From an uncultured Sphaerochaeta sp. (GTDB taxonomy: Bacteria; Spirochaetota; Spirochaetia; Sphaerochaetales; Sphaerochaetaceae): DNA of 64,000 bases. Shown here one piece after another: positions 45,628 to 60,398 of this stretch. Position 1 is the stretch's first letter, and each line of letters opens with the position of its first letter. The notes under the pieces were generated by a model. That model made no database searches. It was not told the origin of the DNA and worked only from the letters and a program-made list of their open reading frames with translations. Both the position numbers and the translations under genes were made by a program. Location of the stretch: contig CAZJMG010000001.1 in NCBI GenBank assembly GCA_964547185.1, forward strand, positions 61,233-125,232. Direction: 5' to 3'.

Positions 45628-46446
45628 CTAGTTGTAATATGCTGAATACTTACTTTTCAAGAACGAAACCGTCCTCTGTGCAGCCGTCTCTGCATCAGGA
45701 TACGGCAAGATTTCTGCTGTAGTCCATCCATCGTATCCAATGCTCTTGAGCGCAGAGAACACCTCGTCCCAATCCATATGGCCATCACCGGGGGCGTGCC
45801 GGTTTGTATCAGCAAAGTGAACATACCTGACATAGCGCTTGTTTCTTATGAAGCTTTCACCGATTTTGTCATCTTCGATGTTCATATGAAACACATCGGG
45901 CATCATGACAAAATTCTTCCGATTGATCTTGTCCAGCAGAGCCGAACACTCATCAAGGTTATTGATATAGTCTATCTCGTATCGATTGACCGGTTCGAGT
46001 ATCAAATCAACACCACGTTTCTGCCCATGATCGGCGACCTTGTGAGCCATATCCAGAAACAGGTCTTCAACCAGTTTGGCATTTCGCCCGGCGATCGGCC
46101 CACGAGTCCTTCCAATATTCACCAATCCGCCAAAATCTGCCGCCAAGTCGATGAACTCACAGAAGGTTTTATACAAATCTTCTCGATTTTCTTTGTTCTC
46201 ATCGGTAAAGTACAGATTTCTTGCAGCAAACACCTGTCCGGAGGAAATTGCACTGACTTCAAGACTGTTGTCGGCCAGCCACTGCTTCAGTTCCTGTTTA
46301 GATACTTCCGAAGGATCTTTGAGTGCAAGCTCCACCCCGTCATATCCCAGTTCGTGAGCCTTGATGATTGATTGCTTCACGCCTCTGAACACAACAAAAG
46401 CATTAGGCATTGCCTCTTTCGAGGCAATAGCTACAGATAATTTCAT
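45628..46446 (-). CDS. sugar phosphate isomerase/epimerase (xylose-isomerase-like TIM barrel)
   Basis: 272 aa. GYDGVEL, LEPVNRYE, VHFADTNR metal-ligand pattern. Confidence 0.85.
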   Translation of the reverse strand: MKLSVAIASKEAMPNAFVVFRGVKQSIIKAHELGYDGVELALKDPSEVSKQELKQWLADNSLEVSAISSGQVFAARNLYFTDENKENREDLYKTFCEFIDLAADFGGLVNIGRTRGPIAGRNAKLVEDLFLDMAHKVADHGQKRGVDLILEPVNRYEIDYINNLDECSALLDKINRKNFVMMPDVFHMNIEDDKIGESFIRNKRYVRYVHFADTNRHAPGDGHMDWDEVFSALKSIGYDGWTTAEILPYPDAETAAQRTVSFLKSKYSAYYN

Positions 46447-46455
46447 GGCAGGCTC

Positions 46456-47733
46456 CTACATTTCCTTGATCAAGGAAAGATCCCCGCAGGATGCTGAGCG
46501 AAGCAGAGGCTGCATATAGACATCCACATCACTGCTGCTCATCGGAACCGGCATGTTCTTCAGCTTCATCTCAAGCTGAGGGTCCTTGGCGGCATTCAGT
46601 GCGCGTTCAATATGGACTGTGCTGAAGCCTTTGAGATCTTCAAGCTTCGTTGGTGCCTTGATCGATGCACTGAAGTCAATCATTGCCTGGGCAACTGCTA
46701 CGGCAAGTTCTCTTCCTTCAAGGTTGTCCACAGAAGAGCCAAACCCGAATTGTGCGAAGATCGAGCCGACCACCTTCAGTTGCTTCTGAATCGCCTTCTC
46801 ATACAACACTGCATAATAAGGATTCATGATTCCACAGGCTGTACCATGGCTGACGATATCAACCAAGGAGAAGCTGGTAAGGTGAGCTCCGCTGGTGCCC
46901 CCGATCATGATCGCGTACCCTCCGAGATCGGTTGCAAGGCCGATGGCCTCTCTCGCCTTTACATTCGTGGGGTCATCAATCAGCGTCTTTGCATACTCAG
47001 CAACCAAACTGATGGCACATTCTGCTATTTCACGAGCTTTTTCATAGGTATCTTCCTTGGCACCACAGAACACCTCAAAGGTATGTGCAATTGCATCAAG
47101 GGCTCCATCGATGGTAACACTGATCGGCATGGAAATGGTTGTCTCATAGTCAAACAACCCAACAGTGGGAACTACTGCCATATCCACGATAAGCTTCTTC
47201 TGCCCAACGACAGGATCGGTGATATTCGAATACTTGGTCAGATGAGCGCCGCTACTTGCAGAGGTCTGCACAGCAATTACCGGGATCAAAGAGGTATTGG
47301 TTTGCTGTAAAGCCTGTGTAACCATATTGGTCCCGAAGTAGTGGTCGATCTCACAGGTAACCTTGCCACCTAAAGCAGCGAGTGCATTGGCAGCCTTCAC
47401 GGCATCAATAGCAGAACCGCCGCCGACCACTACGATGCTGTCAGGCCTATGGTGCAGAATGTAGGACTCAAGTCTGTACACATCCTCACGGGGAGCGTTC
47501 GGCTTTGCATCAGGGGCGATGACGCCTCCCGCAAGCTCAACCCCTGCTGCATTGAGGTATGAAACAACTTTGTCTGCAACACTTTTCATATAGGTGGTAT
47601 TGCTCACAACCAGTGCACGCTTGCCGAACTTGGCAGCAAGACTTCCTACCTGATCGAGGACACCTAGTCCGTGGACATATGAGTCCCCCTTCCATTCATT
47701 GAGTAGCGTATAAGCACGTTTCATTTGATCCAT
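46456..47733 (-). CDS. iron-containing (group III) alcohol dehydrogenase family protein
   Basis: 425 aa. GGGSAIDAVKA NAD-binding motif and a His-rich metal site (AHTFE, GAHLTSFS..HG). Confidence 0.88.
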   Translation of the reverse strand: MDQMKRAYTLLNEWKGDSYVHGLGVLDQVGSLAAKFGKRALVVSNTTYMKSVADKVVSYLNAAGVELAGGVIAPDAKPNAPREDVYRLESYILHHRPDSIVVVGGGSAIDAVKAANALAALGGKVTCEIDHYFGTNMVTQALQQTNTSLIPVIAVQTSASSGAHLTKYSNITDPVVGQKKLIVDMAVVPTVGLFDYETTISMPISVTIDGALDAIAHTFEVFCGAKEDTYEKAREIAECAISLVAEYAKTLIDDPTNVKAREAIGLATDLGGYAIMIGGTSGAHLTSFSLVDIVSHGTACGIMNPYYAVLYEKAIQKQLKVVGSIFAQFGFGSSVDNLEGRELAVAVAQAMIDFSASIKAPTKLEDLKGFSTVHIERALNAAKDPQLEMKLKNMPVPMSSSDVDVYMQPLLRSASCGDLSLIKEM

Positions 47734-47744
47734 CTTTCACTCTC

Positions 47745-48665
47745 CTATTTGTTGCATAGAGCCTTGGCGCGTGCTGCAATATGCTCTGCACTAATTCCAT
47801 ACTTTGCCAAAAGCGGTTCATAAGGGCCGGACTCGGCAAAGACATCCTCAATCCCAATAGCATCAAACGCACAGGATACTCCATTCTTCATACAGGCTTC
47901 GCTCACTGCAGAGGCAAAACCCCCATTCAAAACGTGTTCCTCTACACAAAGCAGACGTCCCGTCTTCTGTACACTCGCACGCACGCTTGCAAAATCCAAG
48001 GGTTTCACCATAGGAACGCACAACACCTCTGCCTTGATGCCATCATGCATCAACAACTCAGCTGCTTTATTCGCATACCCGGCCGTGATGCCATTTGCGG
48101 CAATCGTTACCTCAGATCCTTCTACCGAGCAAACCGTTCCAAGAGTTTCTCCTGCTGGAAGATCGGGCATGGGGTTCCTGTTGAGGCGGATATATACCGG
48201 TCCTTTCTGGTTCAGCGCATACTCCAAGGCTTGTTCGGCCTGCTTTGCATCACAGGGGACGATCACTTGCATATTGGGAAGCGCACGCATGATTGCAATA
48301 TCGGTAATCGCTTGATGGCTTGCACCGTCAAACGAGTCGGATAGGCCACCATAGGCCCCTGCAATGATTACCGGAAGATCGTTGTAGCACAGCGTGTTGC
48401 GGATCTGGTCGGTACCCTTCAAGGCAAGAAAAATGGCAAACGCATTTACCACTGGATGAAATCCTGCAGTAGCCATTCCCGCAGCAATGTCAACCATATT
48501 TGCTTCGGCCACTCCAATATTGAAGAACCGATCGGGAAAATTTTTGGCAAAATAGGAACTCTTTGTGGAGGAGGACACATCAGCATCCAACACAACCAAT
48601 TCAGGGTGCGTTGCTCCCAATTCGGCAAGCTTTTTGCCAAAAGCATCTCTCATAGCAACACTCAT
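47745..48665 (-). CDS. transketolase, C-terminal subunit, set 2
   Basis: 306 aa. FFNIGVAEANMVDIAAGMA. ATGA-type overlap with the N-subunit gene. Confidence 0.92.
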   Translation of the reverse strand: MSVAMRDAFGKKLAELGATHPELVVLDADVSSSTKSSYFAKNFPDRFFNIGVAEANMVDIAAGMATAGFHPVVNAFAIFLALKGTDQIRNTLCYNDLPVIIAGAYGGLSDSFDGASHQAITDIAIMRALPNMQVIVPCDAKQAEQALEYALNQKGPVYIRLNRNPMPDLPAGETLGTVCSVEGSEVTIAANGITAGYANKAAELLMHDGIKAEVLCVPMVKPLDFASVRASVQKTGRLLCVEEHVLNGGFASAVSEACMKNGVSCAFDAIGIEDVFAESGPYEPLLAKYGISAEHIAARAKALCNK

Positions 48666-49552
48666 AGCGCAGCCTCCTTCTTCTTCAGGTCAGCGACAAG
48701 CTCCTCAATGCCCTTCGCATAAGAGGAATCATCAATGACAGCTCCATGCCAAGTGTTCTTTCCTTCGGTGAACGAAACACCCTTGCCTTTGGTGGTATTA
48801 TAGATTACGGCCTTAGGCCATTCATCAGAACTATCCATCCAAGTAAAGGAATCGAGAATTTCTTGGGTATCGTGTCCATCATAGGCTCTTGGTGCTACAT
48901 GCCAACCGAACGAGGAGAGCTTTTCAGAGAGTGGGCCAAGCGGCATGATTTGCTCTTCGGTGCCATCGAGCTGTACCTTGTTGTAGTCGATCATCAATAC
49001 AAATCGCTCGCTTTTGAACTTCGCTCCGCTCATCATCGCTTCCCAAGTCTGTCCCTCGTTCAGACATCCTTCACCACTGATGACGTAGGTCCAATATGTT
49101 TTCTTTGCAAGCTTGGCGGCCAGAGCCATGCCCAGGCCAATCGACAATCCGTGTCCAAGAGCACCTGTTGACATGTCGACTCCGGGTGTCTTGTTCATGC
49201 AAGGATGTCCTTGCAAACGGCTGTTCAGCTCGCGGAACGTAGAGAGCTCCTCGACGGGAAAAAACCCCCTATGAGCAAGCATCGTGTACAAATTAATCGA
49301 GGCATGGCCTTTTGAAAGGATGACGCGGTCGCGATCTTCCCATCTCGGCTCATCTGTCTTGATTGAGAGTCGGTTGAAATAAAGACAGGTCATCAGCTCT
49401 GCACTCGACGCTGCTCCACCCCAATGTCCGGTACCCTTCTGATGAAGAACATCGAACATCACTGTTCTAAAATATGCTGCCAGGGCAGCAAGTTCTTTTG
49501 CATTGAACGTGCTGTTTGGCTGACAGAGTAGATCCTTAACACTTTTTTGCAT
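48662..49552 (-). CDS. transketolase, N-terminal (TPP-binding) subunit, set 2
   Basis: 296 aa. TGHWGGAASS, SKGHASINLY, GALGHG, GEGCLNEG. Confidence 0.92.
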   Translation of the reverse strand: MQKSVKDLLCQPNSTFNAKELAALAAYFRTVMFDVLHQKGTGHWGGAASSAELMTCLYFNRLSIKTDEPRWEDRDRVILSKGHASINLYTMLAHRGFFPVEELSTFRELNSRLQGHPCMNKTPGVDMSTGALGHGLSIGLGMALAAKLAKKTYWTYVISGEGCLNEGQTWEAMMSGAKFKSERFVLMIDYNKVQLDGTEEQIMPLGPLSEKLSSFGWHVAPRAYDGHDTQEILDSFTWMDSSDEWPKAVIYNTTKGKGVSFTEGKNTWHGAVIDDSSYAKGIEELVADLKKKEAAL

Positions 49553-49617
49553 GCAGGAAACTCCTTATCAATGTTTGTAAACAGGGAAACATTTCCAATG
49601 TTTACTAACATTGTGTA

Positions 49618-49658
49618 CTGTATACAATATAGATACCATGTAGAAGGAATCTTGTCAA
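49618..49658 (-). promoter_or_regulatory. sigma-70-type promoter with an overlapping TGTATACA operator (tkt2 operon)
   Basis: Minus strand: TTGACA (49658-49653), 17 nt, TATCTA (49635-49630), then TTGTATACAG (49627-49618) at about +1. Further palindromes TGTTT-GT-AAACA and AATGTT-tact-AACATT lie in the leader (49572-49613). Confidence 0.4.
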
Positions 49659-49773
49659 AGGTATTCTTGTATCATCTTGGTATTTTCTGATTTTCCTTCA
49701 GTAATTCTCTAAAAAATATGGATTATTACTTTCCTTTAGCTTTTTTTATTTATAGATTTCGCTTATACGTTTT

Positions 49774-49818
49774 TTGTACACAATTTGCATTGACGAATAG
49801 GAATTTTCCTTTTACAGT
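49774..49818 (+). promoter_or_regulatory. candidate promoter of the GntR-DUF362 operon with an upstream TTGTACACAA palindrome
   Basis: TTGTACACAA (49774-49783), TTGACG (49790-49795), 17 nt, TACAGT (49813-49818). Confidence 0.35.
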
Positions 49819-49844
49819 AAAGGATAGTAATTGGGGGTACCAGT

Positions 49845-50486
49845 ATGCCTAAATGTATACAAAACAGTCTTTCTGACCAAGTCTATACCATGCTCAAAGA
49901 GCAGATCCTCAGCGGCCAACTCAAAGGAGGGATGAAAATACCAGAAGAATCCCTCGCTGAGCAATTCGGCGTTTCCAGAACTCCAATTCGGGAAGCAATC
50001 CGGCGTCTGAGCGAGTACGGCCTGATCACCATCAAACCCAGAAGCCACGCTGTAGTTTCCCTTATATCAGAGCAGGAAGCAAACGACATCGCAAAAGTGC
50101 GAGTAACGCTTGAACAGCTGGCCATAGATTCCATCGACGAAACATCGTATGCCGCAAACGTGAAGGAGCTTTCGCGCTATGCCGCCGATTGCCAATACGC
50201 AATGGGTATAGGGGACAGGGCAACCGTATTCGAGCAAGACAGCTTGTTTCATTTAGCCTTGATTCGTGCTTCTCGAAACAGCGCATTGATCAACATCTGT
50301 GAGCGCCTTGATGCAAAAATCCAACAGCTTCGTATTGCACAAAACCTTCCAGAAGATGAGCTTTCCTACTACCTCAACCAGCATGCCCAGATGATGACAC
50401 TGCTGAAAAACGGAGAGAAGGAAGCGTGCAAACGCTTATTGTACGAACATATCACCCATGATTTGACCAGCGGGATGAATGCATGA
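49845..50486 (+). CDS. GntR-family transcriptional regulator (FCD-type)
   Basis: wHTH GGMKIPEESLAEQFGVSRTPIREAIRRLSEYGLI plus a helical ligand-binding domain. Confidence 0.9.
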   Translation: MPKCIQNSLSDQVYTMLKEQILSGQLKGGMKIPEESLAEQFGVSRTPIREAIRRLSEYGLITIKPRSHAVVSLISEQEANDIAKVRVTLEQLAIDSIDETSYAANVKELSRYAADCQYAMGIGDRATVFEQDSLFHLALIRASRNSALINICERLDAKIQQLRIAQNLPEDELSYYLNQHAQMMTLLKNGEKEACKRLLYEHITHDLTSGMNA

Positions 50487-51577
50487 AGAGAAATGACATC
50501 ATCATTACTTACGGTTCCAATCCTCTCAACATGACAGAAAAGCTGTTGCAGGCCATCGATATTGAATCGCTTATTTCGAACAAACAAGCCTCAATTGCTC
50601 TCAAACCCAATCTCGTAGTTGCCGCAACAGCCGAAGGGGGAGCAACCACGCACCCTGAGATTCTTGTGTCAATAATCGAACATCTGCAGAAAAAAGGGTA
50701 TCACAACATCTCAATAGTAGAGAGTGCTTGGGTTGGGGATTCCACCAAGGAAGGCTTTCGGGTAAACGGATATCAGCAGATCAGTAAAAAATATAAAGTC
50801 CCTCTCATCGATGTGAAGGATGACAGCTATGAGAAGAAGACGGTTGATGGAATCACCATGGAGGTCAGTAAGGCCATACTCGATACAGATTTCTTGATCA
50901 GCCTTCCTGTACTGAAAGGACATTGCCAGACGGCTATGACCTGCGCCCTTAAGAATATGAAAGGATGTCTATCTGATAGGTCAAAAAGACAGTTCCATAC
51001 CTTGGGCCTCCATCGACCTATTGCAGCCCTGAACAAAGTCCGATCTGCTGATTTGGTAATTGTAGACAGCCTTAATGGTGATTTGGATTTTGAGGAAGGG
51101 GGGAACCCTGTTGAGACAAACAGGATGTTCGCCTGTCGTGATAGTGTACTGTGCGATAGTTTTGGAGCCTCTCTGATGGGTTTCGAGCTCAAGGATATTC
51201 CATATATCGAAATGGCTCAGAATCTCGGTGTCGGTACTACTGATGTACAGAATGCTAATTTCATCCAGCTCAATGAACCCAGCGAAGAGTCGGTATCCCG
51301 TCCTACAGGAAGAGCGAACTACCTCAGTCGCTATACAGAGCCGAAGAGTGCCTGCTCAGCGTGCTACGGAAACCTCATTCATGCTCTCAAGAGACTGGAC
51401 GAGGTGAATCGCCTCAAGAACATCAAACATCAGATTTGTATCGGTCAGGGGTACAAGGGTGAATCCGACCTTTCAAAAGTTGGTGTCGGGGTCTGTACAA
51501 GGGGTTTGGGGAAAAGCCTTTCAGGCTGCCCTCCGAAAGCCATCGATATGATCAAGTTCATCAAGGAATTAGAATAA
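50483..51577 (+). CDS. DUF362 domain-containing protein
   Basis: ATGA overlap with the gntR stop. IALKPNLVVAATAEGGATTHPEILVSIIEHLQKKG is typical of DUF362. C-terminal Cys pairs (CSACYGNL, CTRGLGKSLSGC). Confidence 0.75.
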   Translation: MKRNDIIITYGSNPLNMTEKLLQAIDIESLISNKQASIALKPNLVVAATAEGGATTHPEILVSIIEHLQKKGYHNISIVESAWVGDSTKEGFRVNGYQQISKKYKVPLIDVKDDSYEKKTVDGITMEVSKAILDTDFLISLPVLKGHCQTAMTCALKNMKGCLSDRSKRQFHTLGLHRPIAALNKVRSADLVIVDSLNGDLDFEEGGNPVETNRMFACRDSVLCDSFGASLMGFELKDIPYIEMAQNLGVGTTDVQNANFIQLNEPSEESVSRPTGRANYLSRYTEPKSACSACYGNLIHALKRLDEVNRLKNIKHQICIGQGYKGESDLSKVGVGVCTRGLGKSLSGCPPKAIDMIKFIKELE

Positions 51578-52552
51578 GGTTTTTGCCAAAGTGTCTACAA
51601 ATCGCCAATCCTTGTCCGACAACACCACAGCAAGTGCTTTGCTGTTTTCCTCGATTTGCTCTGGCTTTCTCGCTCCGCACAGCACATTCATCGTTCTGCT
51701 TGCCTGACTCGTCCACGCTATGATGATAGTACCTATTGAGCAGTCATACTTTTCAGACAACTGTGAAAGAGAGGCAAGCATCGCGAGCACTTTCGGCCGA
51801 TTCTGCTCATTGTACCAAGGAATCGAGGCCTTTGCAGTCCCAACGATGGCAGTTTCAAGATCGACCTTTCCGGTTAGCAATCCTCGTTCAAGTGGACTAT
51901 AGGCTTGGAAAGTAATAGCATGCTCTGCGCAGTAGGTTGCACTTTCTTCCTTGGATCGGGCAAGGAGGCTGAAACGTTCCTGGACAAGAACAGGATTCCC
52001 AAACTTCCGGTACTCCTTCAATTCATCCAAACTGAGGTTGCAAGCACCATAGCTGCGAATCTTTCCTTCTTGCTTGAGCTGTTCCAAGACAGCTACGGTT
52101 TCCTCGATCGGGGTAAAGAATGGGGGTATCGATTGCCAATGAGTCAAAAGCAAGTCAAGGTAATCGGTATCCAAACGCTTGAGCGATTGCTCAACCTGCT
52201 CTCTGATACTTTTTGGGCTAAGATTACGTCGAACCACCACCCCGTCTCGACTCTTATGCACCGAACCTTCATCATCGGGACCCCAAACTAAACCACACTT
52301 CGAAGCAAGCACACACTGAGTTCTCTTTCCCTTAAGGGCTATGGACAAGAGCTCTTCACTTACTCCGTTCCCATAGGCAGGGGCTGTATCGATGAAATTA
52401 ATGCCAAGATCCAGTGCACGATGGACTGTCCTTATGGATTGTTGCTCGTCACTCTCTCCCCAGCTGTCTCCACCTCCCATAGCCCAGGTCCCCAAGGCTA
52501 TGGAAGAGATATCGATGTCTGTGTTTCCTAGTTTCATTACACGCTTCTCCAA
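51569..52552 (-). CDS. aldo/keto reductase
   Basis: 327 aa. GINFIDTAPAYGNGVSEELL, DYLDLLLTHW, AKR catalytic tetrad context. Confidence 0.92.
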   Translation of the reverse strand: MEKRVMKLGNTDIDISSIALGTWAMGGGDSWGESDEQQSIRTVHRALDLGINFIDTAPAYGNGVSEELLSIALKGKRTQCVLASKCGLVWGPDDEGSVHKSRDGVVVRRNLSPKSIREQVEQSLKRLDTDYLDLLLTHWQSIPPFFTPIEETVAVLEQLKQEGKIRSYGACNLSLDELKEYRKFGNPVLVQERFSLLARSKEESATYCAEHAITFQAYSPLERGLLTGKVDLETAIVGTAKASIPWYNEQNRPKVLAMLASLSQLSEKYDCSIGTIIIAWTSQASRTMNVLCGARKPEQIEENSKALAVVLSDKDWRFVDTLAKTLF

Positions 52553-53451
52553 GCTTCCAACAACGTTCTCTTGGCATTTGCAACTACCAAGTCGGCATCT
52601 TCGCCTGCCTGAGGCTTCACCTCAAAGGAAAGAATATTCTTTCCTCCTTCCACCAGATAGCCGATATCCTTCATCTTACAGAGGAACTCAGTAAGATAGT
52701 CTGTATCATTTTCTGATCCCGGATAGCCGAATCTAGGATGATAGTCTCCATAACTGGGATGTGTTGGGTCGCCAATCAAGGTGTTGCCCACATGGACATG
52801 ACGAATATACGCTTGTATTGGATCAACCGCTTCATCAATCGTCTCCCCGATCATCGGGATGTGGGAACAATCGATCATGATGCCGAAATTGTCATATTCG
52901 CTACAGACTTCTTGCGCATATGCACGGACCAACGGTGCCGGTCCGAGCAGTGATTTCTTGTCGATCGTATGGTCGAAGACCTCGAGAACCACAGGCATGT
53001 CACCTTTCTCTTGGGCATACGCACACAACTCTTTCGTGCTTGTAATCAATGCCTTGAGATATTGTTCCTCTTTTCCTTTCTCATACCCTCGGGAAAGAAA
53101 CTGAAATTCTTCAGCTCCCATGGCGTAGGCCTCATCGAGACCTTCTTTCAGAATCGACACAGCCTGTCTTCGTTCTTGCTCATCCAAGCTGTTGATATTG
53201 AGATTATTTGCAAAGAGCAGGGAGTGTCCGCTATAGGTAGCAGTACAGTGTGCCGTCGATACAAGCTTGGGAACCGAATCATTGAGTGCAGCGAAGGGAA
53301 GATGTCCCAGTTCGACAACCTCAAAGAAAGGATCGACAAGGATTTTCTTCAAAGCTTCGATGAAGGCTTGTTCACTAGAAACTGAGTGAGGATAAGCCAT
53401 GGAGACAACGATTCCCATCCTGCAGTAATTATGAATGTCATCTTTCATCAA
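52537..53451 (-). CDS. sugar phosphate isomerase/epimerase (TIM barrel), second copy in the island
   Basis: 304 aa. VLEVFDH, DCSHIPM, VHVGN metal-ligand-like pattern. Confidence 0.85.
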   Translation of the reverse strand: MMKDDIHNYCRMGIVVSMAYPHSVSSEQAFIEALKKILVDPFFEVVELGHLPFAALNDSVPKLVSTAHCTATYSGHSLLFANNLNINSLDEQERRQAVSILKEGLDEAYAMGAEEFQFLSRGYEKGKEEQYLKALITSTKELCAYAQEKGDMPVVLEVFDHTIDKKSLLGPAPLVRAYAQEVCSEYDNFGIMIDCSHIPMIGETIDEAVDPIQAYIRHVHVGNTLIGDPTHPSYGDYHPRFGYPGSENDTDYLTEFLCKMKDIGYLVEGGKNILSFEVKPQAGEDADLVVANAKRTLLEAWRSV

Positions 53452-54110
53452 TCTTGCTCCTTGAGTATTTTCTTTACCTTTTCACAGCAAAGAATCGGGG
53501 AGCCAAGTACCGGGACCTTGGCGATTTCTTGTGCCTTGGCTTGCAAATGCCCCATGGAAGCTTGGGCAAGCACGATGCAGTCATACCCCTTCACCTCTTC
53601 AATCATCTTTAGAACAAGCGCATCATGGGTAGCCATATCGCCCTTGCGCATCGCGGTATACGCAGGTTCATTGTCTTGGGCATCAACTTCTATAGTGACA
53701 CCTGCAAGTTTTGCTTCTTGTTCAAGTTTTGCAATAGTCGGCTTGAGGGTACTCATCGCCGTAGCGACCACCTTGATCTTCCGTCCAAGTCGTACTGCCT
53801 GCTCTGTCATCGCATCGTCGATTGCAACCACAGGGACCCTGATGAAAGGCCTGATCTGTTGTACTGCAGGGGTAAGAGTGGAACAGGTGACTACAATGAC
53901 ATCGGCTTTGGTCAATTCACATGATTTCAAATCATTGAACAACCTATTCATGTTTTCTTGGGAGAAATAACCAATCTCTGCAGGATCGGAAGCGAGGAAG
54001 TCATCAAGGATACTATGCATAATAATCTCTTCTCCCACCACTTCCTGCAACAGCTGAGGAAAACTTCCCAGCACAGGTCTTACCGTATGTATCATCGCAA
54101 CTCGTTTCAT
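53448..54110 (-). CDS. Asp/Glu/hydantoin racemase-superfamily protein
   Basis: 220 aa. VIVVTCSTLTP (first catalytic Cys context), two Rossmann-like halves. The second Cys context reads LAQASMG. Confidence 0.78.
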   Translation of the reverse strand: MKRVAMIHTVRPVLGSFPQLLQEVVGEEIIMHSILDDFLASDPAEIGYFSQENMNRLFNDLKSCELTKADVIVVTCSTLTPAVQQIRPFIRVPVVAIDDAMTEQAVRLGRKIKVVATAMSTLKPTIAKLEQEAKLAGVTIEVDAQDNEPAYTAMRKGDMATHDALVLKMIEEVKGYDCIVLAQASMGHLQAKAQEIAKVPVLGSPILCCEKVKKILKEQD

Positions 54111-54156
54111 GATTCTTACCCTCTTGGAACTTGTTTCTGTAGCTTAGCTGAGCAAT

Positions 54157-54189
54157 AGAGGGATGCAAGAGTCGCCTCTTCATCCCTCT
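54157..54189 (-). promoter_or_regulatory. strong intercistronic stem-loop between tctC and the downstream enzyme genes
   Basis: AGAGGGATG(c)AAGAG-tcgc-CTCTTCATCCCTCT: 14 bp with one bulge and no U-tract on either strand. Confidence 0.5.
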
Positions 54190-54215
54190 ACAATATGTAC
54201 TAGTACTTGTAATCC

Positions 54216-55208
54216 TTACTTATCTTTACCGATAGAAGCAAGATAGTCAGCCTGGAACTTCGTTCCATACGCCTTGAACGTTGCACTATCCATGAAGTCG
54301 GGGATCAACTTCTGTCTTTCGATGTAGCCGGTCTGCCATGCAGAGGTGGCGTTGATCTTCGCAAGCATATCGCTGTAGAAAGCAACAGCTGCAGGACTCA
54401 TCGAACCAGGAGCAACGACAGATCTCCAGTTGGGAACCTCGACGTTGTTGTACCCAAGTTCACTCAAAGTAGGCGCGCCACTGAGATTGCCGGGGAAGCG
54501 ACTGGTTGAAAGAGCCAAAATAGGAGTAATCCTTCCAGCTTCAACATACTGAGCAGCTGCTGCGGGCTTGGAGATCAAGAGGTCAAAGTGACCGCCAAGG
54601 ATTGCAGTAATAGCACCACTGGTTGCATCGTGAGCAATGTAGGAAAGCTGGTCCTGGGTAACCCCAAGTTCCCTGATCAAAGCAGCGTGACAGGCAATGT
54701 CATCACCCTTGGAACCGCCGAGAACCATCCTCTCACCTCTGCCCAATGCAGCAAGAACTTCTTCTACGGTCTTGTACTTGGAGTACTCACCTACAAAAAT
54801 CAAGTGCTTGTCGACTGCCATATGAGCAACAGGCTGGAAGTTCTGAAAACGGTTGTTGGTGTTCATGACCATCGGCATCAAGTCGCCGCTGTTGAAGGTA
54901 AGCAGGGTATGGTCAGCCTGTACACCGGCTCTCATATTGGAAACATAGAGTCTGCCCACTTCGCCGGCACCATCGGTCTTGTACTGGATTACAAAGTTCT
55001 GACCATTTGACAGTTTCTCTGCAGTTGCGATGTCAGTAAGGGTACGAGTAAAGATATCAGATCCACCACCGGGAGAACTGGTAACAACCCATTCAATGTT
55101 CCTTGAAGGAGCAAAGGTCTTCGGACCTTCTGACTCAGCCTGACCGGCAGCATACACGGACATGCTCAAAAGCAGAGCAACACTCAGAAGTAGAACTAAT
55201 TTTTTCAT
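54216..55208 (-). CDS. tctC: tripartite tricarboxylate transporter substrate-binding protein (TctC/Bug family)
   Basis: Signal peptide MKKLVLLLSVALLLSMSVYA. 330 aa Bug-family length. Adjacent to tctA and tctB. Confidence 0.9.
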   Translation of the reverse strand: MKKLVLLLSVALLLSMSVYAAGQAESEGPKTFAPSRNIEWVVTSSPGGGSDIFTRTLTDIATAEKLSNGQNFVIQYKTDGAGEVGRLYVSNMRAGVQADHTLLTFNSGDLMPMVMNTNNRFQNFQPVAHMAVDKHLIFVGEYSKYKTVEEVLAALGRGERMVLGGSKGDDIACHAALIRELGVTQDQLSYIAHDATSGAITAILGGHFDLLISKPAAAAQYVEAGRITPILALSTSRFPGNLSGAPTLSELGYNNVEVPNWRSVVAPGSMSPAAVAFYSDMLAKINATSAWQTGYIERQKLIPDFMDSATFKAYGTKFQADYLASIGKDK

Positions 55209-55292
55209 GTCTAAATCTCCTCTTTTTCTAACGGGACCAAGTCCCGGTTTTCACGTATTTCAAAACCCTTTCCTAAGGATTTTCCGATTACA

Positions 55293-56798
55293 CTATTTTC
55301 TTAAACCGGTCTTTTTCAAAACAAACTTAACCACCGGGGTAAGGATGATAAGAAAGAGAACAGCCAAGAAGAAGGCAGAGATAGGTTTCATAAAGAAGAT
55401 ATCCAAGCTTCCATTGCTGATGATGAAGGCCTTTCTCATGTTTGACTCCAACAGGGGAGCAAGGACAAAAGCCAAGAGCATCGGGGCAACACCATATCCA
55501 TTACGGTCAAGAATGTACCCGGCAACTCCTGAGAGGAACATCACGATGACCCCATACATGGAATAGGATGTACTGTATCCTCCTACGACACATACTACGG
55601 TGATAATCGGGATCAATATTCGTACCGGGACGGTGAGAATCTTGATCAAGAAAGGGATGATTCCCAAAGAAATAATCAACGTCAGCAAGTTGGCGAGGAA
55701 AAGGCTGGCTATCAAGCCCCAGGCGAAATCAGGATTGGTGGAGAAGAGAAGAGGTCCAGGATTAAGGCCCCACATCATCAGACCACCAAGAAGGACTGCA
55801 CCAGTACCTGAGCCGGGTATACCCAAGGCAAGCAAGGGAGCAAAAGAACCTGCAGCCGCTGCGTTGTTCGCAGCTTCACAAGCAGCAATACCTTCCACAG
55901 CACCACTGCCTAGGGGCTCTTCATTCTTGAATGCTTTCTGCATTGCATAGCCGAGGAACGCTCCGGTAGTAGCTCCGGCTCCGGGAAGAACGCCGACGAA
56001 GGTTCCCATGAATCCGCTTCTGACAGCCGGGGGAATAAGGCGTTTCACATCCCGAAGCGTCAGCATAGAGCCCCTGATGGTCAACTTCTGGTTGAGATTC
56101 GCCTCAACCTTCTTATTTCGCTCACCCATCAGCTTCAACACTTGGCTGAATCCAACAGCACCAATAACGAAGGGTGTAAAGGGAATACCTCCAAGCAGAT
56201 AGATATTTCCAAAGTCATAGCGAGGACTTCCGGTAAGGGTATCCATCCCGATGGAGGCAATAAGGATGCCCAACAACGTCAAGACAACACCTTTTGTAGG
56301 ATTCTCACCTACCAGCCATCCAATTGAGGTCATGGCAACCAGAAGCAAGGCTGTCATTTCGGCCGGACCGAACTTCAACCCGATGTCGGCGAGCAACGGA
56401 CCCATGAAGGTAAGTATAAACATCCCGATCAAGCCACCGATGAATGAGGATAGATTAGAAGTAAACAGGGCTTGACCTGGACGATTTCGTTTCGTAGCCA
56501 TCGGATAGCCGTCCAATGCTGTCATGACAGCCGGTGAATCACCGGGGATGTTCAACAGAATGGCACTGAATGAGCCACCGTACATGTTCGAGTAGTACAA
56601 GGCTCCAAGCATAATGATGGCAGTGGTGGGATTGAATCTGTAGGTAAGGGGCAGCAGCAAGGCTACTCCGGCGAGAGACCCAATACCAGGCATGGCTCCG
56701 ACGACCAGTCCGAGCACTGCTCCAAGCATGGTTACCAATACATTTTCCAAAGTAAGGACTACTGAGAAGCCCATGAATAATAATTGCAAGTTTTCCAT
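55293..56798 (-). CDS. tctA: tripartite tricarboxylate transporter large permease TctA
   Basis: 501 aa polytopic. GAVLGLVVGAMPGIG and GVLPGAGATTGAFLGY motifs. Confidence 0.92.
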   Translation of the reverse strand: MENLQLLFMGFSVVLTLENVLVTMLGAVLGLVVGAMPGIGSLAGVALLLPLTYRFNPTTAIIMLGALYYSNMYGGSFSAILLNIPGDSPAVMTALDGYPMATKRNRPGQALFTSNLSSFIGGLIGMFILTFMGPLLADIGLKFGPAEMTALLLVAMTSIGWLVGENPTKGVVLTLLGILIASIGMDTLTGSPRYDFGNIYLLGGIPFTPFVIGAVGFSQVLKLMGERNKKVEANLNQKLTIRGSMLTLRDVKRLIPPAVRSGFMGTFVGVLPGAGATTGAFLGYAMQKAFKNEEPLGSGAVEGIAACEAANNAAAAGSFAPLLALGIPGSGTGAVLLGGLMMWGLNPGPLLFSTNPDFAWGLIASLFLANLLTLIISLGIIPFLIKILTVPVRILIPIITVVCVVGGYSTSYSMYGVIVMFLSGVAGYILDRNGYGVAPMLLAFVLAPLLESNMRKAFIISNGSLDIFFMKPISAFFLAVLFLIILTPVVKFVLKKTGLRK

Positions 56799-56808
56799 AT
56801 TCAGCTCC

Positions 56809-57267
56809 TTAGTAGGCGATCAGGTTGTAGATGAATCCCTTCGGAAAGGGAACCCCAAGCCAGAATACAAAAGCACCGAGAACGATGGCTGCAATGATGG
56901 CAAATCCAATCAAGGTGGTTTTCCAGCTGAACTTCTCATACCACTTCAACCAAAGAATGACAAATATTGCCAAGGAGGGGAGCATGCCGATTATAAACGT
57001 AGCAAGCATGATAGCCACCACTCCTAGGGCAGGATACCAGTTTTCAATGGGGTAGCTTGTTTCAGTCTCTTTTCTGCCTCCCAAAAAAGCAATTAGGCTG
57101 ATTACCAACAAGACACTACCGATGATAGTGGGAAAGAAACCAGGAAGGGGGCCTCTGAGTTCATGCCAGAATCCATACTGGGTGACTCCGAGAATGATGA
57201 AGGCCAAAGCAATCAGGGCTGTGACGATAGGTATCACCATTTTACTCGTAATCTTTTTTATCTGCAT
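56809..57267 (-). CDS. tctB: tripartite tricarboxylate transporter small permease TctB
   Basis: 152 aa, 4 TM, immediately upstream of tctA. Confidence 0.8.
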   Translation of the reverse strand: MQIKKITSKMVIPIVTALIALAFIILGVTQYGFWHELRGPLPGFFPTIIGSVLLVISLIAFLGGRKETETSYPIENWYPALGVVAIMLATFIIGMLPSLAIFVILWLKWYEKFSWKTTLIGFAIIAAIVLGAFVFWLGVPFPKGFIYNLIAY

Positions 57268-57280
57268 ACTGTATATCTCC

Positions 57281-58288
57281 TTAGGAGCGAGAGCGCAGAT
57301 GGTTTGCCATACGGCAGGCCATTTTTACTGCATTCTCAAAAGCACTGGTCTTTACAATTCCTTTACCGGCTATATCATAGGCGGTACCATGAGCACAGGT
57401 AACTATCGGGGCAGGAAGGCCTCCTGCTATGGTGATACCCTCATCAAATCCTCTCAGCTTAAGAGCTATCTGACCTTGGTCATGGTACATCGTCACCACT
57501 CCATCAAACTCCCCACGGAATGCCTTGATAAAGGTAATGTCGCTTGGATAGGGGCCTGATGCATCGATTCCCATCTTCCTTGCTTCTGCAATTGCAGGTT
57601 CTATGACATCAATTTCCTCACGGCCGCACAGTCCATGTTCACCGGCGTGGGGATTGAGGGCGGCAAGTGCAAGTCTTGGTTTGGTGATACCGCTGTTTTT
57701 CAAAGAAGTATTGGCCAGACGGACTGCTCGCATGATAGTCTGGACGCTCAGATTCTTGCTTACTTCACTGATAGGGATATGGCTGGTTGTGCGAGTAGTC
57801 CAAAGGTCACCCAACACATTGATCTCTCCAAAGGGCTCGGTGTGATTGAACAACTGAGCCAAGTAGTGATGTTCACTTTCCAGTGCACAACCGGCCTCTT
57901 TCATGCCTGCTTTATTGAAGGGGCCAAAACAGAAGCCTTCAATCTTCTTGTCCTTATAAAGCTCAACACCAAGCTTCATAGCATGCAAATTTGCCTTGCC
58001 TGCTTCGATGGTCAACGTTCCATAGACGACGGTATTGGGATCTTGGTCTTTTTGGTCAAGTACAGGGATACCGACAGTCCAGTCGGCCTGATCGACCTCA
58101 TCAATTATCTGTAGGGGGACTGATGCACCGAGGACAGAGAATGCTCGTTCGAGCAACCTGGCATCACCGATGATCACTGGCTTGCAATATTGATTAAAAA
58201 AGTTGCTGATTGCTAGCTTGGCAATAATTTCAGGTCCGACTCCGGCTCCATCACCGATCAAGATTCCCAATACAGGTGTATCATTCAT
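57281..58288 (-). CDS. PdxA-family NAD-dependent dehydrogenase (4-hydroxythreonine-4-phosphate / 4-phospho-D-threonate dehydrogenase-like)
   Basis: 335 aa. LGILIGDGAGVGPEII, ALNPHAGEHG, MYHDQG, CAHGTAYDIAGKG are PdxA motifs. Confidence 0.9.
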   Translation of the reverse strand: MNDTPVLGILIGDGAGVGPEIIAKLAISNFFNQYCKPVIIGDARLLERAFSVLGASVPLQIIDEVDQADWTVGIPVLDQKDQDPNTVVYGTLTIEAGKANLHAMKLGVELYKDKKIEGFCFGPFNKAGMKEAGCALESEHHYLAQLFNHTEPFGEINVLGDLWTTRTTSHIPISEVSKNLSVQTIMRAVRLANTSLKNSGITKPRLALAALNPHAGEHGLCGREEIDVIEPAIAEARKMGIDASGPYPSDITFIKAFRGEFDGVVTMYHDQGQIALKLRGFDEGITIAGGLPAPIVTCAHGTAYDIAGKGIVKTSAFENAVKMACRMANHLRSRS

Positions 58289-58348
58289 AGAAGTGCTCCC
58301 TCTTTAAAATACAGTGAATACGAACTACATCACTCGTATCTTAAGTAA

Positions 58349-58364
58349 AGCAACTAGCGTGCCA
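58349..58364 (-). promoter_or_regulatory. sigma-54 (-24/-12) promoter of the pdxA-like/tctBAC operon
   Basis: The minus strand reads TGGCACgctagTTGCT, about 60 nt upstream of ATG 58288, directly downstream of the EBP gene. Confidence 0.72.
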
Positions 58365-58375
58365 ACTTCCTTATA

Positions 58376-58414
58376 TTGTATACAATTTGTTTGTTTTTGG
58401 TTTTTTGTATACAG
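58376..58414 (-). promoter_or_regulatory. pair of TGTATACA boxes just upstream of the sigma-54 promoter
   Basis: TTGTATACAA (58376-58385) and TTGTATACAG (58405-58414). The latter 10-mer is identical to the box at the tkt2 promoter (49618-49627, opposite strand). Confidence 0.45.
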
Positions 58415-58497
58415 TTTATCTCTTGGTAATTCAATCAAATATGAAAAAAATATAAGAAATTTCTAAAAATTTTGATAATACGTGTCTAAGAATAGGG

Positions 58498-58545
58498 GTG
58501 TTTCATAAAACGTTTCATGTTTCAATTGAAACATTTCTGAAACAT
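58498..58545. promoter_or_regulatory. nested TGTTTCA/TGAAACA inverted repeats (candidate EBP UAS and/or EBP-gene terminator)
   Basis: 18-bp perfect palindrome ATGTTTCAATTGAAACAT (58517-58534), flanked by TGTTTCA (58499-58505) and TGAAACA (58538-58544), about 160 nt upstream of the -24 element. Confidence 0.45.
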
Positions 58546-60398
58546 TATTTTTCAAAACCTTGAAATTTCCTCCAAAGCGTAGTCCGACTTATTCCAACCT
58601 TGGTTGCAAAAGCCTCTTTAGTAAGCCCGCTGGCAAGATAGTTTTCATACAGTTGTCTATCAGTATACTTCATTGTATGCACCTTATGCCCTTCTTCTAG
58701 CCTATCTTCCAGATATAAACTGGTGGATCCGATATCCAACTGCTCAATTTCCCTGACAGAAACCTCATTCGATGTATGCAAGATAGCCAACCGTTCAGCT
58801 GCGTTGCGAAGCTCCCTGATATTTCCAGGCCAGTAGAACTTTTTGAGCATCTCAATTGCTTCATCTGAGACAGTAATGGGATGCACATTGTGCCTACTGC
58901 AATACAACTGAACAAAATGTCTGAAAAGTATGCCAATATCCTCTTTTCTATCACGAAGAGGAACCAGCATGAGACTCAGCAAACTGATACGATAAAATAA
59001 ATCGAGCCGAAAGCTCCCTTCCTTTACTTTCTGTACTATGCTGTTGTTCGCCGCACTGATTACCCGAACATCTACAGGGATGACCATGTCAGCACCTATG
59101 CGTCGTATCTCTCTCTCCTGCAGAACCCGAAGCAGCTTGGCTTGTACCACAATCGGCATTTCCGCGATCTCGTCAAGAAAAATTGTTCCCTTGTGGGCCA
59201 ACTCAAACAAACCAGCCTTTCCTCCCTTTCGGGCACCGGTGAAAGCGCCTTCTACATAGCCAAAGAGCTCACTCTCCAACAGTTGCTCAGGAAGAGCTGC
59301 ACAGTTTACTGCAACAAAACTCTCTGTTGCCCGATGGGAAGCATTGTGAATGCTTTGGGCAAACAACTCCTTGCCCGTTCCGGTTTCCCCCAGCAGCAGC
59401 ACAGCCCCGGGAACCTCGCTGAACCTCTTGGCTTTCTCGAGCAGGGCTTGCATATATGCATTTTGGGTCACAATATCGGAAAACTGATATTTGGCGACCA
59501 AACCTTTTCGGCTGAGCTCCCTGCGAATCTTGTATTCTGTCTTCTGGATTGTTTCTGCATTTTGAAAGGTAAAAATAAACCCTGAGGTCTCCTGATCCAT
59601 GCTGATCGGTTGCTGCGTCACAAGAAACCGCTGGCCATGGATACTCACCAACTCTTCTTTCTGTGTACCGGCGCGATATACTTGCTCAAGAGGGGCTCCT
59701 ACCAGATCACTTCTTCCAAACAAGTGCTCTGCCTGATGATTTGCTGCAATAATAACGTCATTGCTGTTTATCGCAAGCAAAGCATAGGAAGCATTGTTGA
59801 GCAGGGTTCCGAGGAGGTTTCCTCTTGTCTGGGCACGATCAAGGGCGCGGGCTGCCGCTACAGCTTCAGCAACGGCATGGACTACTGCCTGATAGCCGGT
59901 TTTTACGTGCACATGCAACAGCCCTTGTTCTTCACAAAGGCGGCACATGGTCAGGCCACCCACCATGACAGTGCACCCTGCATTTGTCAGTTGTTTCAAG
60001 CCCATCCTTACGTCTTCCTGATCGGTTACCTGAAAAATGGAAACAGGACACTCAACGAGTTTCGCAATGGTTTGACTGTCACACAACTGCTCATTCGTCA
60101 CGATTCCAATATGCGCGTTCGGCTTAAGTTGTTTCGCTTGGGCAAGGGCTTCTAGAAGGTCAGCGCTAAAGAGCGCAATGGGGACAACATGCACAGAACT
60201 CTTGTACTGCGATATTGCATGGGCTGTGATGCCTCTTGCTACTATGATGTCAGCATCCAGTGGTTCAATGACTTTTGGGTCGCTTCCAAAGATATGGGTG
60301 GTTTCAATGGTAATATTGTCAAGCACATAGCTTTGTACAATCTGTTCAAAGGTTTCCTGCAATTCGATATAGGGAACCACTATCAGTATCTTTATCAC
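58545..60398 (-). CDS. sigma-54-dependent transcriptional activator with PrpR-type N-terminal sensor domain and PAS domain
   Basis: 617 aa. PrpR_N-like MIKILIVVPYIELQ...IIVARGITAHAI. AAA+ GETGTGKE, GAFTGA (VEGAFTGARK), GTIFLDEI. C-terminal HTH (VGISRTTLWRK). Confidence 0.92.
   Translation of the reverse strand: MIKILIVVPYIELQETFEQIVQSYVLDNITIETTHIFGSDPKVIEPLDADIIVARGITAHAISQYKSSVHVVPIALFSADLLEALAQAKQLKPNAHIGIVTNEQLCDSQTIAKLVECPVSIFQVTDQEDVRMGLKQLTNAGCTVMVGGLTMCRLCEEQGLLHVHVKTGYQAVVHAVAEAVAAARALDRAQTRGNLLGTLLNNASYALLAINSNDVIIAANHQAEHLFGRSDLVGAPLEQVYRAGTQKEELVSIHGQRFLVTQQPISMDQETSGFIFTFQNAETIQKTEYKIRRELSRKGLVAKYQFSDIVTQNAYMQALLEKAKRFSEVPGAVLLLGETGTGKELFAQSIHNASHRATESFVAVNCAALPEQLLESELFGYVEGAFTGARKGGKAGLFELAHKGTIFLDEIAEMPIVVQAKLLRVLQEREIRRIGADMVIPVDVRVISAANNSIVQKVKEGSFRLDLFYRISLLSLMLVPLRDRKEDIGILFRHFVQLYCSRHNVHPITVSDEAIEMLKKFYWPGNIRELRNAAERLAILHTSNEVSVREIEQLDIGSTSLYLEDRLEEGHKVHTMKYTDRQLYENYLASGLTKEAFATKVGISRTTLWRKFQGFEK

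Follow-up and report, generated by a model that had tools for sequence, protein, structure and literature searches.

Organization of the Locus

In a stretch of 64,000 nucleotides from the genome of an uncultured Sphaerochaeta sp. (genome completeness 99.67%), here called the window, a block of 14 genes at positions 45628 to 60398 forms a module whose probable function is the uptake of a sugar-like carboxylic acid and its entry into central metabolism by way of a transketolase, in place of the usual kinase. An earlier note, made from the letters of the window, had described these 14 open reading frames as three transcription units, and their coordinates and families were all reproduced with the open reading frame list and Pfam scans. 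The first unit is encoded on the minus strand from 58288 to 51569, with tight or overlapping junctions, and comprises the genes for a PdxA-family metal/NAD dehydrogenase (57281-58288; PF04166), the small membrane subunit TctB (56809-57267; PF07331, 50.2 bits), the large membrane subunit TctA (55293-56798; PF01970, 468.3 bits), a TctC-type periplasmic binding protein (54216-55208; PF03401, 46.5 bits), a protein of the Asp/Glu/hydantoin-racemase family (53448-54110; PF01177, 71.4 bits), a divergent xylose-isomerase-like TIM barrel (TIM2; 52537-53451; PF01261, 52.2 bits) and a YdjG-like aldo/keto reductase (AKR; 51569-52552; PF00248, 221 bits; NF049922, 328 vs. a cut-off of 550). On the same strand, 5' of this unit, a PrpR_N-PAS-sigma54 AAA+ activator of 617 amino acids is encoded at 58545-60398 (Sigma54_activat, 220.9 bits; PrpR_N, 96.1 bits), which we refer to as the enhancer-binding protein (EBP). 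The second unit, on the plus strand, consists of a GntR/FCD regulator gene (49845-50486; PF00392 and PF07729) and a DUF362 gene (50483-51577; PF04015, 167.7 bits), which overlap by 4 nt, and the DUF362 gene is predicted to be co-transcribed with that of the regulator. The third unit, again on the minus strand, encodes a split transketolase with its N-terminal, thiamine-diphosphate-binding subunit (TK-N; 48662-49552; PF00456, 164 bits) and its Pyr/C subunit (TK-C; 47745-48665; PF02779 and PF02780), followed by an iron-type alcohol dehydrogenase of 425 amino acids (Fe-ADH; 46456-47733; PF00465 and PF25137) and an IolO-type xylose-isomerase-like TIM barrel (45628-46446; PF01261, 141.9 bits).

The earlier note had called the block an island. 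Composition does not support this term, the GC content being 0.45-0.49 in the block as in its flanks, and the entire block is flanked by the same HtpG and MscS genes in S. pleomorpha (PdxA-like proteins 75% identical).

Regulatory Sites Shared by the Three Units

A -24/-12 promoter had been claimed for the first unit, and such an element (TGGCACgctagTTGCt / TGGCACgctagTTGC) is present at 58350-58364 on the minus strand, 62 nt 5' of the PdxA-like ATG. The pattern has two matches in the window, compared to 0.15 expected, and at least 13 related loci have an equivalent element at a distance of 60-100 bp before the PdxA-like gene. The genome carries rpoN (C5:20179), and in Holtiella rpoN is located directly upstream of the activator gene. 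The EBP scores below the cut-off of the PrpR equivalog (TIGR02329, 357 vs. 499) and its predicted targets are not prp genes. The region 58499-58546 contains a cluster of five TGAAACA/TGTTTCA heptamers, at 135-195 bp on the upstream side of the -24/-12 element. In ten or more orthologous loci from Spirochaetota and Bacillota, arrays of three to five copies recur at 80-195 bp from the sigma-54 promoter, likewise upstream (background, 0.52 per kb). The array is a probable upstream activator site of the EBP and, as judged by sequence and comparison, the EBP acting through this array and the sigma-54 promoter drives the operon encoding the PdxA-like protein, TctBAC, the racemase-like protein, TIM2, and the AKR.

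A second sigma-54 promoter, located before the TIM barrel, racemase-like, and transketolase genes, is present in L021 (Lachnospiraceae) and in the Enterocloster-type loci L006 and L013, and because the same array lies before both promoters, one activator would control both halves of the operon there. The sigma-54 promoter of an amidohydrolase/KdgT gene pair adjoining the Enterocloster bolteae cluster has no TGAAACA array, nor has that of the L021 DUF1537 gene, about 6 kb away from the PdxA-like gene on its upstream side, and the pair and the DUF1537 gene were therefore excluded from the regulon. A promoter pattern search found no sigma-54 promoter before the transketolase operon of Sphaerochaeta.

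The transketolase operon is connected to the rest of the block by a different site. The palindrome TTGTATACAA has four copies in the window, all in front of these three units. Matches to TGTATACA number four in the 64 kb, compared to 0.4 expected, and start only at 49619, 49854, 58377, and 58406. Two of them (58377-58384 and 58406-58413) lie directly upstream of the -24 element, a placement that is the same in L009 (S. pleomorpha) and L012 (uncultured Sphaerochaeta). The other two (49619-49626 and 49854-49861) delimit the divergent control region at 49619-49861, in which the operator placement is the same in L009, L014 (Spirochaetaceae), and L019 (Spirochaetales). The copy at 49854 overlies the first codons of the GntR gene, and the copy at 49619 is situated just downstream of what we read as a putative sigma-70-like promoter of the transketolase operon on the minus strand (TTGACA at 49658-49653, a 17 nt spacer, and TATCTA at 49635-49630); a promoter scan did not list this promoter at 49658-49630. 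Across the four other spirochaete loci L009, L012, L014, and L019, TTGTATACAA occurs at the same positions, and it agrees with the usual GntR half-site pattern. It is most simply explained as the operator of the cluster's own GntR protein, which would make it likely that this protein represses its own gene as well as the two minus-strand operons. Since TTGTATACAA operators lie at the sigma-54 promoter, the transketolase operon, and the GntR gene, the three units are tied together.

The units do differ in strand and in promoter type, as they might if they were unrelated neighbors and the PdxA-like protein a vitamin-B6 or housekeeping paralogue. The shared operator, the synteny across two phyla together with the shared activator site array, and the existence of a canonical PdxA with its Asn and Arg residues on contig C10 all argue against such a coincidence, which we consider very improbable. 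The proposal that the three units belong to one block therefore stood, given the conserved TTGTATACAA operator and, in Firmicutes, the EBP site array before both sub-operons.

Two further observations concern these control elements. At 49569-49613, past the GntR operator and before the start codon of the transketolase, there is a 15-nt inverted repeat (CAATGTTTGTAAACA / TGTTTACTAACATTG; 93% complementary, arms 15 nt apart) that could be a hairpin in the 5'-untranslated region or a further protein site. Elsewhere in the window, the second perfect -24/-12 match (TGGCACgccttTTGC at 12499-12513, plus strand) precedes a PspA/IM30 gene (12574-13251), and a PspF-type activator without a sensor domain is encoded at 13540-14574 on the minus strand, as in an ordinary phage-shock system.

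Occurrence in Spirochaetes and Clostridia

Eighty loci around relatives of the PdxA-like gene were compared by neighborhood, and gene families were counted in the 26 closest ones, many of which lie on truncated contigs. The PdxA-like protein was encoded in 23 of these, TctC and TctA in 21 each, TctB and the EBP in 17 each, the racemase-like protein in 15, the IolO-like TIM barrel and TK-N in 13 each, TK-C in 11, and TIM2 in 10. Less frequent were GntR (8 loci), a 2-hydroxyacid dehydrogenase (7), an amidohydrolase (7), and glycerate kinase (4). Fe-ADH, DUF362, and AKR genes were encountered in three loci each and in spirochaetes only, and for the AKR in Sphaerochaeta loci only; the Fe-ADH orthologues (67% identity) were confined to L014 and L025. 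In E. bolteae, Lacrimispora, Holtiella, and Proteiniclasticum all core genes are located on one strand, and the transketolase and the IolO-like TIM barrel are therefore part of the conserved core. Judging from these neighborhoods, that core is made up of the activator, the PdxA-like protein, TctBAC, the racemase-like protein, the two TIM barrels, and the split transketolase. The enzyme set proposed in the earlier note has thus to be modified: its members are present, with the transketolase as a core rather than an accessory component, and the AKR, Fe-ADH, and DUF362 protein as lineage-specific additions outside the core.

Among Sphaerochaetaceae, a PdxA-like orthologue was detected in 3 of the 3 other genomes of the genus and in 10 of the 60 other genomes searched. 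The protein is 69-74% identical to those of E. bolteae, Defluviitalea, Acetivibrio ethanolgignens, and Bullifex, TctA is 70-79% identical in the clostridial loci, and the very high identity of the PdxA-like proteins across phyla suggests lateral spread. The sequence cluster of the E. bolteae protein has 542 members and is indexed in 591 blocks of the collection. From the conserved sites and gene order, the block is best described as one co-regulated module that is shared with gut Clostridia.

In some variant clusters (L070:6078-10037 from Treponemataceae, L012, L021, and L020), genes for a sulfatase, an arylformamidase-like 'cyclase' hydrolase, an amidase, or an amidohydrolase are found beside the PdxA-like gene. 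Such hydrolase-type neighbors hint that in some lineages the acid is first released from a conjugate.

A PdxA-Like Dehydrogenase Without a Partner Kinase

The PdxA-like protein matches PF04166 over the whole length (profile positions 2-286 of 286; 291.7 bits vs. a cut-off of 27). It scores below the PdxA equivalogs (TIGR00557, 255 vs. 290.35; NF002992, 257 vs. 470) and below the equivalog for D-threonate-4-phosphate dehydrogenase, PdxA2 (NF002891, 207 vs. 583). In an alignment with E. coli PdxA and the second PdxA of this genome, the metal ligands His166, His211, and His266 as well as Lys274 and Thr137 are invariant. At other E. coli positions the protein is changed (Asn283 to Thr, Arg292 to Ile, Asp296 to Ala), and it contains an additional 10-residue ESEHHY stretch ahead of the His-Thr-Glu motif. 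Both residues of the Asn/Arg pair are retained in E. coli PdxA, in the canonical second PdxA of the genome (C10:61518), and in the proteins of PDB entries 4jqp, 2hi1, and 6e85; the Arg is absent in 82 of 82 examined members of the PdxA-like clade, down to 40% identity and including many Proteobacteria.

No kinase is encoded within 45628-60398, as the earlier note had stated. In the rest of the genome a single DUF1537 kinase was found, unlinked to the block, on contig C3 (C3:34788-35456; L004:10768-12033), beside genes for MerR, PRiA4_ORF3/DUF6933, and enoyl-reductase proteins and with no PdxA, aldolase, or isomerase partner nearby. Of 82 related loci, 4 have a DUF1537 gene at a distance of no more than 10 kb, and about 36 have TctA relatives within that distance. 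In Sphaerochaeta the adjacent TctA, TctB, and TctC genes form a complete set for a tripartite tricarboxylate transporter (TTT), and the best PDB relatives of TctC are Bug27, TTT binding proteins, and the terephthalate-binding protein (E values of 1e-17 to 1e-9). In three loci a TRAP transporter is encoded instead of TctBAC or in addition to it. Both TTT and TRAP systems carry carboxylates.

A more distant member of the clade, from Fusibacter paucivorans (L035:8202-11014; PdxA-like protein 47% identical), is encoded together with TctBAC; the genes before it specify the large and small subunits of a LeuCD-type aconitase and follow a sigma-54 promoter. The arrangement resembles an isomerase and dehydrogenase couple for a hydroxy-polycarboxylate, probably a different substrate within the clade.

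Taken together, the altered Asn/Arg site, the rarity of DUF1537 genes, the TctA and TRAP neighbors, and the LeuCD pair of Fusibacter point to free hydroxy-carboxylates as substrates of the PdxA-like clade. We propose that the PdxA-like protein dehydrogenates a hydroxy acid that carries no phosphate, or decarboxylates it oxidatively.

According to classical tetronate chemistry, a substrate of the threonate/erythronate type would instead be phosphorylated by the orphan DUF1537 kinase on C3, and the PdxA-like protein would act as PdxA2 on the 4-phosphate. The only DUF1537 kinase of the genome indeed has no PdxA neighbor of its own, both PdxA-family genes lack an adjacent kinase, and the TRAP binding protein of a sister cluster resembles proteins that presumably bind erythronate-type ligands. 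Nevertheless, this explanation seems to us improbable. Asn283 and Arg292, present in PdxA and PdxA2, are replaced, the PdxA2 score is far from its cut-off, and DUF1537 genes are missing from 78 of the 82 related loci and stand outside the regulon in L021. In addition, its product, dihydroxyacetone phosphate, would leave the transketolase, the epimerases, and the tartronate-semialdehyde reductase and glycerate kinase described below unexplained. The earlier suggestion of a PdxA-type enzyme working without a DUF1537 kinase therefore holds at the level of computation, given the replaced Asn and Arg, the four DUF1537-containing neighborhoods, and the L021 DUF1537 promoter that lacks the array.

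Candidate Epimerases

The IolO-like TIM barrel stays below its nearest equivalog (NF041099, 257.6 vs. a cut-off of 300) and has T. maritima TM0416 as best PDB match (E = 1.6e-46). From this similarity it appears nearest to the ketose-3-epimerase type, which would act next to the ketone of a keto-acid sugar. For TIM2 no PDB match was obtained by sequence. Its structural model (predicted local distance difference test, pLDDT, 89.6) superimposes on ketose 3-epimerases and sugar isomerases with template-modeling (TM) scores of about 0.7 at about 15% identity. For the racemase-like protein, a PDB sequence search yielded only remote racemases, and its model (pLDDT 93) reaches TM scores up to 0.79 with Asp/Glu racemases. 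Conserved TCS and AQASM motifs are present and Cys76 is invariant; at the position expected for the second Cys, as deduced by offset from a phmmer alignment, a conserved Ala-Ser-Met seems to be present. We propose that the protein is an epimerase acting on the carbon that adjoins the carboxylate.

DUF362 and the N-terminal domain of LarA are placed in the same Pfam clan, and enzymes of the LarA family epimerize tartrate (PMC11770544). In the Spirochaetaceae loci L014 and L025, a gene for a LarA-type 2-hydroxy-acid racemase is inserted between the Fe-ADH and IolO-like genes. A search of the Atlas cluster database with the DUF362 protein returned only other DUF362 clusters. Use of the nickel-pincer cofactor of LarA by the DUF362 protein was considered and is unsupported, no LarC (PF01969) having been found in the genome. 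Four LarA (Lar_N) homologues are encoded in this genome, on contigs C3, C31, C12, and C60.

Transketolase and the Fate of the Three-Carbon Remainder

The split transketolase keeps the equivalents of E. coli His26, His66, His100, and His261 in TK-N and of Arg358, Ser385, Glu411, Asp469, His473, and Arg520 in TK-C, so that the anion-pocket residues Arg358, Ser385, and Arg520 are retained; His461 is replaced by Tyr, likewise in the E. bolteae orthologue. Because the genome encodes one full-length transketolase (C70) and eight split TK-N paralogues, the enzyme of the block would not be the housekeeping one, and rather a dedicated catabolic transketolase.

Several of the split paralogues are changed at the positions of His461, Asp469, Ser385, or Arg520, and the number of paralogues suggests many transketolase-based catabolic modules in this Sphaerochaeta. 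A class II aldolase gene (31453-32118) and a gene for a DUF6062 protein (28922-29653) flank a second split transketolase within the window (30604-31443 and 29660-30607, minus strand), whose C subunit has Asp and Asn at the positions of His461 and Asp469 of E. coli TktA.

The genes accompanying the transketolase in other lineages indicate what may become of the remaining carbons. In L031 (Clostridiaceae), the gene directly after TK-C encodes a tartronate-semialdehyde reductase (NF008592, 452.8 vs. 397; TIGR01505, 408.1 vs. 340.75), the only locus in which this equivalog was reached. In L016 (Proteiniclasticum) and L029 (Holtiella), the operon itself includes a glycerate kinase gene (432 and 479 bits vs. 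a cut-off of 168), which adjoins that of a glycerate-dehydrogenase-like 2-hydroxyacid dehydrogenase of the kind found in seven loci. The E. bolteae operon ends with the same 2-hydroxyacid dehydrogenase, and a CdaR-type regulator and a glycerate kinase are encoded nearby. In the Sphaerochaeta genome glycerate kinase is unlinked (C4:1873). By gene association, then, the only kinase tied to the pathway is predicted to be a terminal glycerate kinase.

The same three-carbon enzymes would also fit a tartrate route, in which the racemase-like protein interconverts tartrates, the PdxA-like protein decarboxylates tartrate oxidatively to hydroxypyruvate, a TIM barrel serves as hydroxypyruvate isomerase (Hyi), and reductases and glycerate kinase complete the conversion, with the transketolase using hydroxypyruvate as an irreversible two-carbon donor. 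Hydroxypyruvate is an established transketolase donor, TTT systems and enzymes of the Asp-racemase fold suit C4 dicarboxylates, and tartronate-semialdehyde reductase, 2-hydroxyacid dehydrogenase, and glycerate kinase are all associated with the cluster. Also, the IolO-like TIM barrel matches the hydroxypyruvate isomerase model (E = 8e-25), and the LarA homologue of the L014 and L025 operons belongs to a family that epimerizes tartrate (PMC11770544). However, the transketolase would be dispensable for tartrate breakdown, yet it belongs to the core (13 of the 26 loci in spite of truncated contigs), and with two to three TIM barrels in addition to a racemase-like protein the capacity for stereochemical editing exceeds what tartrate needs. 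Furthermore, the conserved TIM barrel matches the keto-uronate/ketose 3-epimerases best and not Hyi (257.6 vs. 87.5 bits). We therefore judge the tartrate route to be unlikely, even if it is the strongest of the competing explanations.

A Proposed Route Through Transketolase

From the regulatory architecture, the conservation of the genes, and the family assignments, the following chemical steps can be proposed for a route in which transketolase takes the place of a sugar kinase. The TTT system would take up a polyhydroxy acid, and the PdxA-like enzyme would oxidize a hydroxyl group of this free acid, using NAD+ and possibly releasing CO2, and thereby form a ketol-acid (HOCH2-CO-CHOH-CHOH-COO-). 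The starting compound could be a hexarate, the closest isostere of 4-phospho-threonate, which would be decarboxylated oxidatively, or a pentonate, which would be oxidized at C4. Epimerization may then take place at two carbons, the one adjoining the carboxylate by the racemase-like protein (LarA or DUF362 in some lineages) and the one adjoining the ketone by the IolO-like TIM barrel, and both enzymes together would set the configuration that the transketolase requires. The split transketolase would move the two-carbon ketol onto glyceraldehyde-3-phosphate, and because xylulose-5-phosphate is formed in this way no sugar kinase would be needed. The remaining tartronate semialdehyde, which may be interconverted with hydroxypyruvate, perhaps by TIM2, would be reduced to glycerate by the AKR and/or the Fe-ADH here, and elsewhere by the 2-hydroxyacid dehydrogenase or a true tartronate-semialdehyde reductase. 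Finally, glycerate kinase would phosphorylate the glycerate. Such a scheme would be redox-neutral and suited to fermenters, and it is the simplest one that gives every core gene a role. The most likely substrates would be a hexaric acid of the glucarate/galactarate type, through oxidative decarboxylation, or a pentonic acid, through C4 oxidation.

Several points weigh against this scheme. The replaced Asn283 and Arg292 are residues that we presume, from 2003 crystal-structure work and database annotation, to contact the substrate phosphate in E. coli PdxA. Lys274 and His/Thr136-137, which we also take to be substrate contacts of PdxA, are retained, so that the substrate might still be a phosphate ester. 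A DUF1537 gene is found 2-3 kb away in the Microvirga loci L045 and L064 (PdxA-like proteins 42-43% identical). The proteins nearest to the TRAP binding protein of L012 are presumably erythronate or pantoate binders, which points to small monocarboxylates over aldarates. In the Sphaerochaeta block (45628-60398) there is no tartronate-semialdehyde reductase, 2-hydroxyacid dehydrogenase, or glycerate kinase, and the AKR and the Fe-ADH are candidate terminal reductases for the aldehyde left by the transketolase by their position only. The racemase-like protein apparently has a single catalytic Cys, which is unusual for a two-base epimerase. The role of TIM2, as sugar-acid epimerase or hydroxypyruvate/tartronate-semialdehyde isomerase, is a guess, as is the notion that the DUF362 protein possibly acts like a 2-hydroxy-acid epimerase. 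With these points taken into account, we give about even chances to the block being one regulon for the kinase-free breakdown of an imported polyhydroxy carboxylic acid via transketolase.

The closest parallel to the proposed transketolase step is the sulfo-TK pathway of Clostridium sp. MSTE9 (SqvD, SqwGH, SqwI, and SqwF), where a split transketolase takes an unphosphorylated, sulfonate-tailed ketose and transfers the ketol to glyceraldehyde-3-phosphate, and where the aldehyde is reduced by the PF00465 alcohol dehydrogenase SqwF (PMC9594981). By analogy, an unphosphorylated anion-tailed ketose would donate its ketol to glyceraldehyde-3-phosphate in the route proposed here, yielding xylulose-5-phosphate with no sugar kinase, and the aldehyde remainder would possibly be reduced in a similar way, as a PF00465 Fe-ADH follows the transketolase in Sphaerochaeta. 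In contrast to sulfo-TK, the tail would be a carboxylate and not a sulfonate, the ketose would stem from a PdxA-type dehydrogenase and not from an aldose isomerase, the remainder would be assimilated via glycerate rather than excreted, and no sulfoquinovosidase is present.

A still closer copy of sulfo-TK can be envisaged, in which a C6 keto-acid of the 5-keto-gluconate, fructuronate, or tagaturonate type is produced or epimerized and then undergoes two rounds of transketolase cleavage: after the first round, a TIM barrel would isomerize the resulting C4 aldehyde-acid, and the second round would release glyoxylate for reduction to glycolate. The nearest relative of the conserved TIM barrel, IolO/TM0416, acts on C6 keto-uronates, an isomerase between two transketolase rounds follows the logic of sulfo-TK, 2-hydroxyacid dehydrogenases also reduce glyoxylate, and an idonate-5-dehydrogenase-like Zn-ADH is encoded in L031 (Clostridiaceae). 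The embedded glycerate kinase and the bona fide tartronate-semialdehyde reductase, however, indicate a C3 and not a C2 end product, and the PdxA-like enzyme would be left without an obvious role, so that two rounds of cleavage are improbable in our opinion.

Returning to the single-round scheme with a glycerate end, the PdxA2/DUF1537 pathways for D-threonate and D-erythronate, reportedly worked out by Zhang et al. (PNAS, 2016), share with the block a PdxA-family dehydrogenase in a sugar-acid cluster, near xylose-isomerase-fold enzymes and a carboxylate transporter. That pathway work is cited in PMC12994016 and PMC9997740. Here, in contrast, no DUF1537 gene belongs to the regulon, the Asn and Arg are replaced, the score is far below the PdxA2 equivalog, and transketolase, the racemase-like protein, and the glycerate end are added. 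A PdxA-family enzyme named for a non-phosphorylated dicarboxylate and paired with a TTT binding protein is known in TphB, the terephthalate dihydrodiol dehydrogenase, with the TctC-type TphC (PDB 4aty and 8hkb); TphB is, however, distant (E = 5e-25) and operates in an aromatic pathway of aerobes with no transketolase or epimerases. D-Apionate oxidoisomerase ApnO was considered as a further free-acid precedent within the PdxA family and was dismissed, since it has a KARI-like fold (PMC13753588). The proposed lower part, from tartronate semialdehyde via a reductase to glycerate and glycerate kinase, equals that of the E. coli gud/gar and gcl-hyi-glxR-glxK systems, whereas the upper part here has no dehydratase or aldolase and would use oxidative decarboxylation and transketolase instead. 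As for T. maritima IolO (TM0416, 5-keto-L-gluconate epimerase), it is the closest characterized relative of the TIM barrel at 45628-46446 and epimerizes next to a ketone; the block differs in missing the equivalog score (257.6 vs. 300) and in having no inositol genes.

Searches of full-text literature turned up neither an account of the cluster nor a pathway that matches it. A paper on sigma-54 regulons of Clostridiales does not mention the cluster, and a paper on glucarate/galactarate utilization in the gut deals with a different one. In keeping with this, the idea of an undescribed acid-sugar or hydroxy-acid route, raised in the earlier note, has so far withstood computational scrutiny. What appears to be new, as we propose from the gene content, is the combination of a PdxA2-type acid-sugar cluster with kinase-free cleavage of the sulfo-TK type. 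Somewhat more tentatively, and at slightly less than even odds, we suggest a 'carboxy-TK' entry into central carbon metabolism, in which PdxA-type oxidative decarboxylation and stereo-convergent epimerization turn aldaric or aldonic acids into a ketol-acid, and a dedicated transketolase yields tartronate semialdehyde and xylulose-5-phosphate from it without the participation of a sugar kinase, dehydratase, or aldolase.

The gene set is common in gut metagenomes, and no function assigned to the cluster was found in the literature. If the proposal is correct, gut and digester anaerobes use the 'carboxy-TK' route and have gained a further way to use oxidized sugars, which are linked to gut inflammation. 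The logic of sulfoquinovose breakdown, with transketolase instead of a kinase, would be extended to carboxylates. First functions would be obtained for the large Arg-less PdxA clade, for a single-Cys racemase-fold family, and for a divergent TIM-barrel family, and these functions would be testable for proteins that are mis-annotated ('4-hydroxythreonine-4-phosphate dehydrogenase PdxA') or unannotated. An activator site motif conserved in two phyla together with the GntR operator offers a clean regulatory model.

Outside the block, the window encodes at 42953-44008 an ABC ATPase with an N-terminal TM1506/DUF1893 domain, followed by an ABC-3 permease and a weakly ZnuA-like open reading frame.

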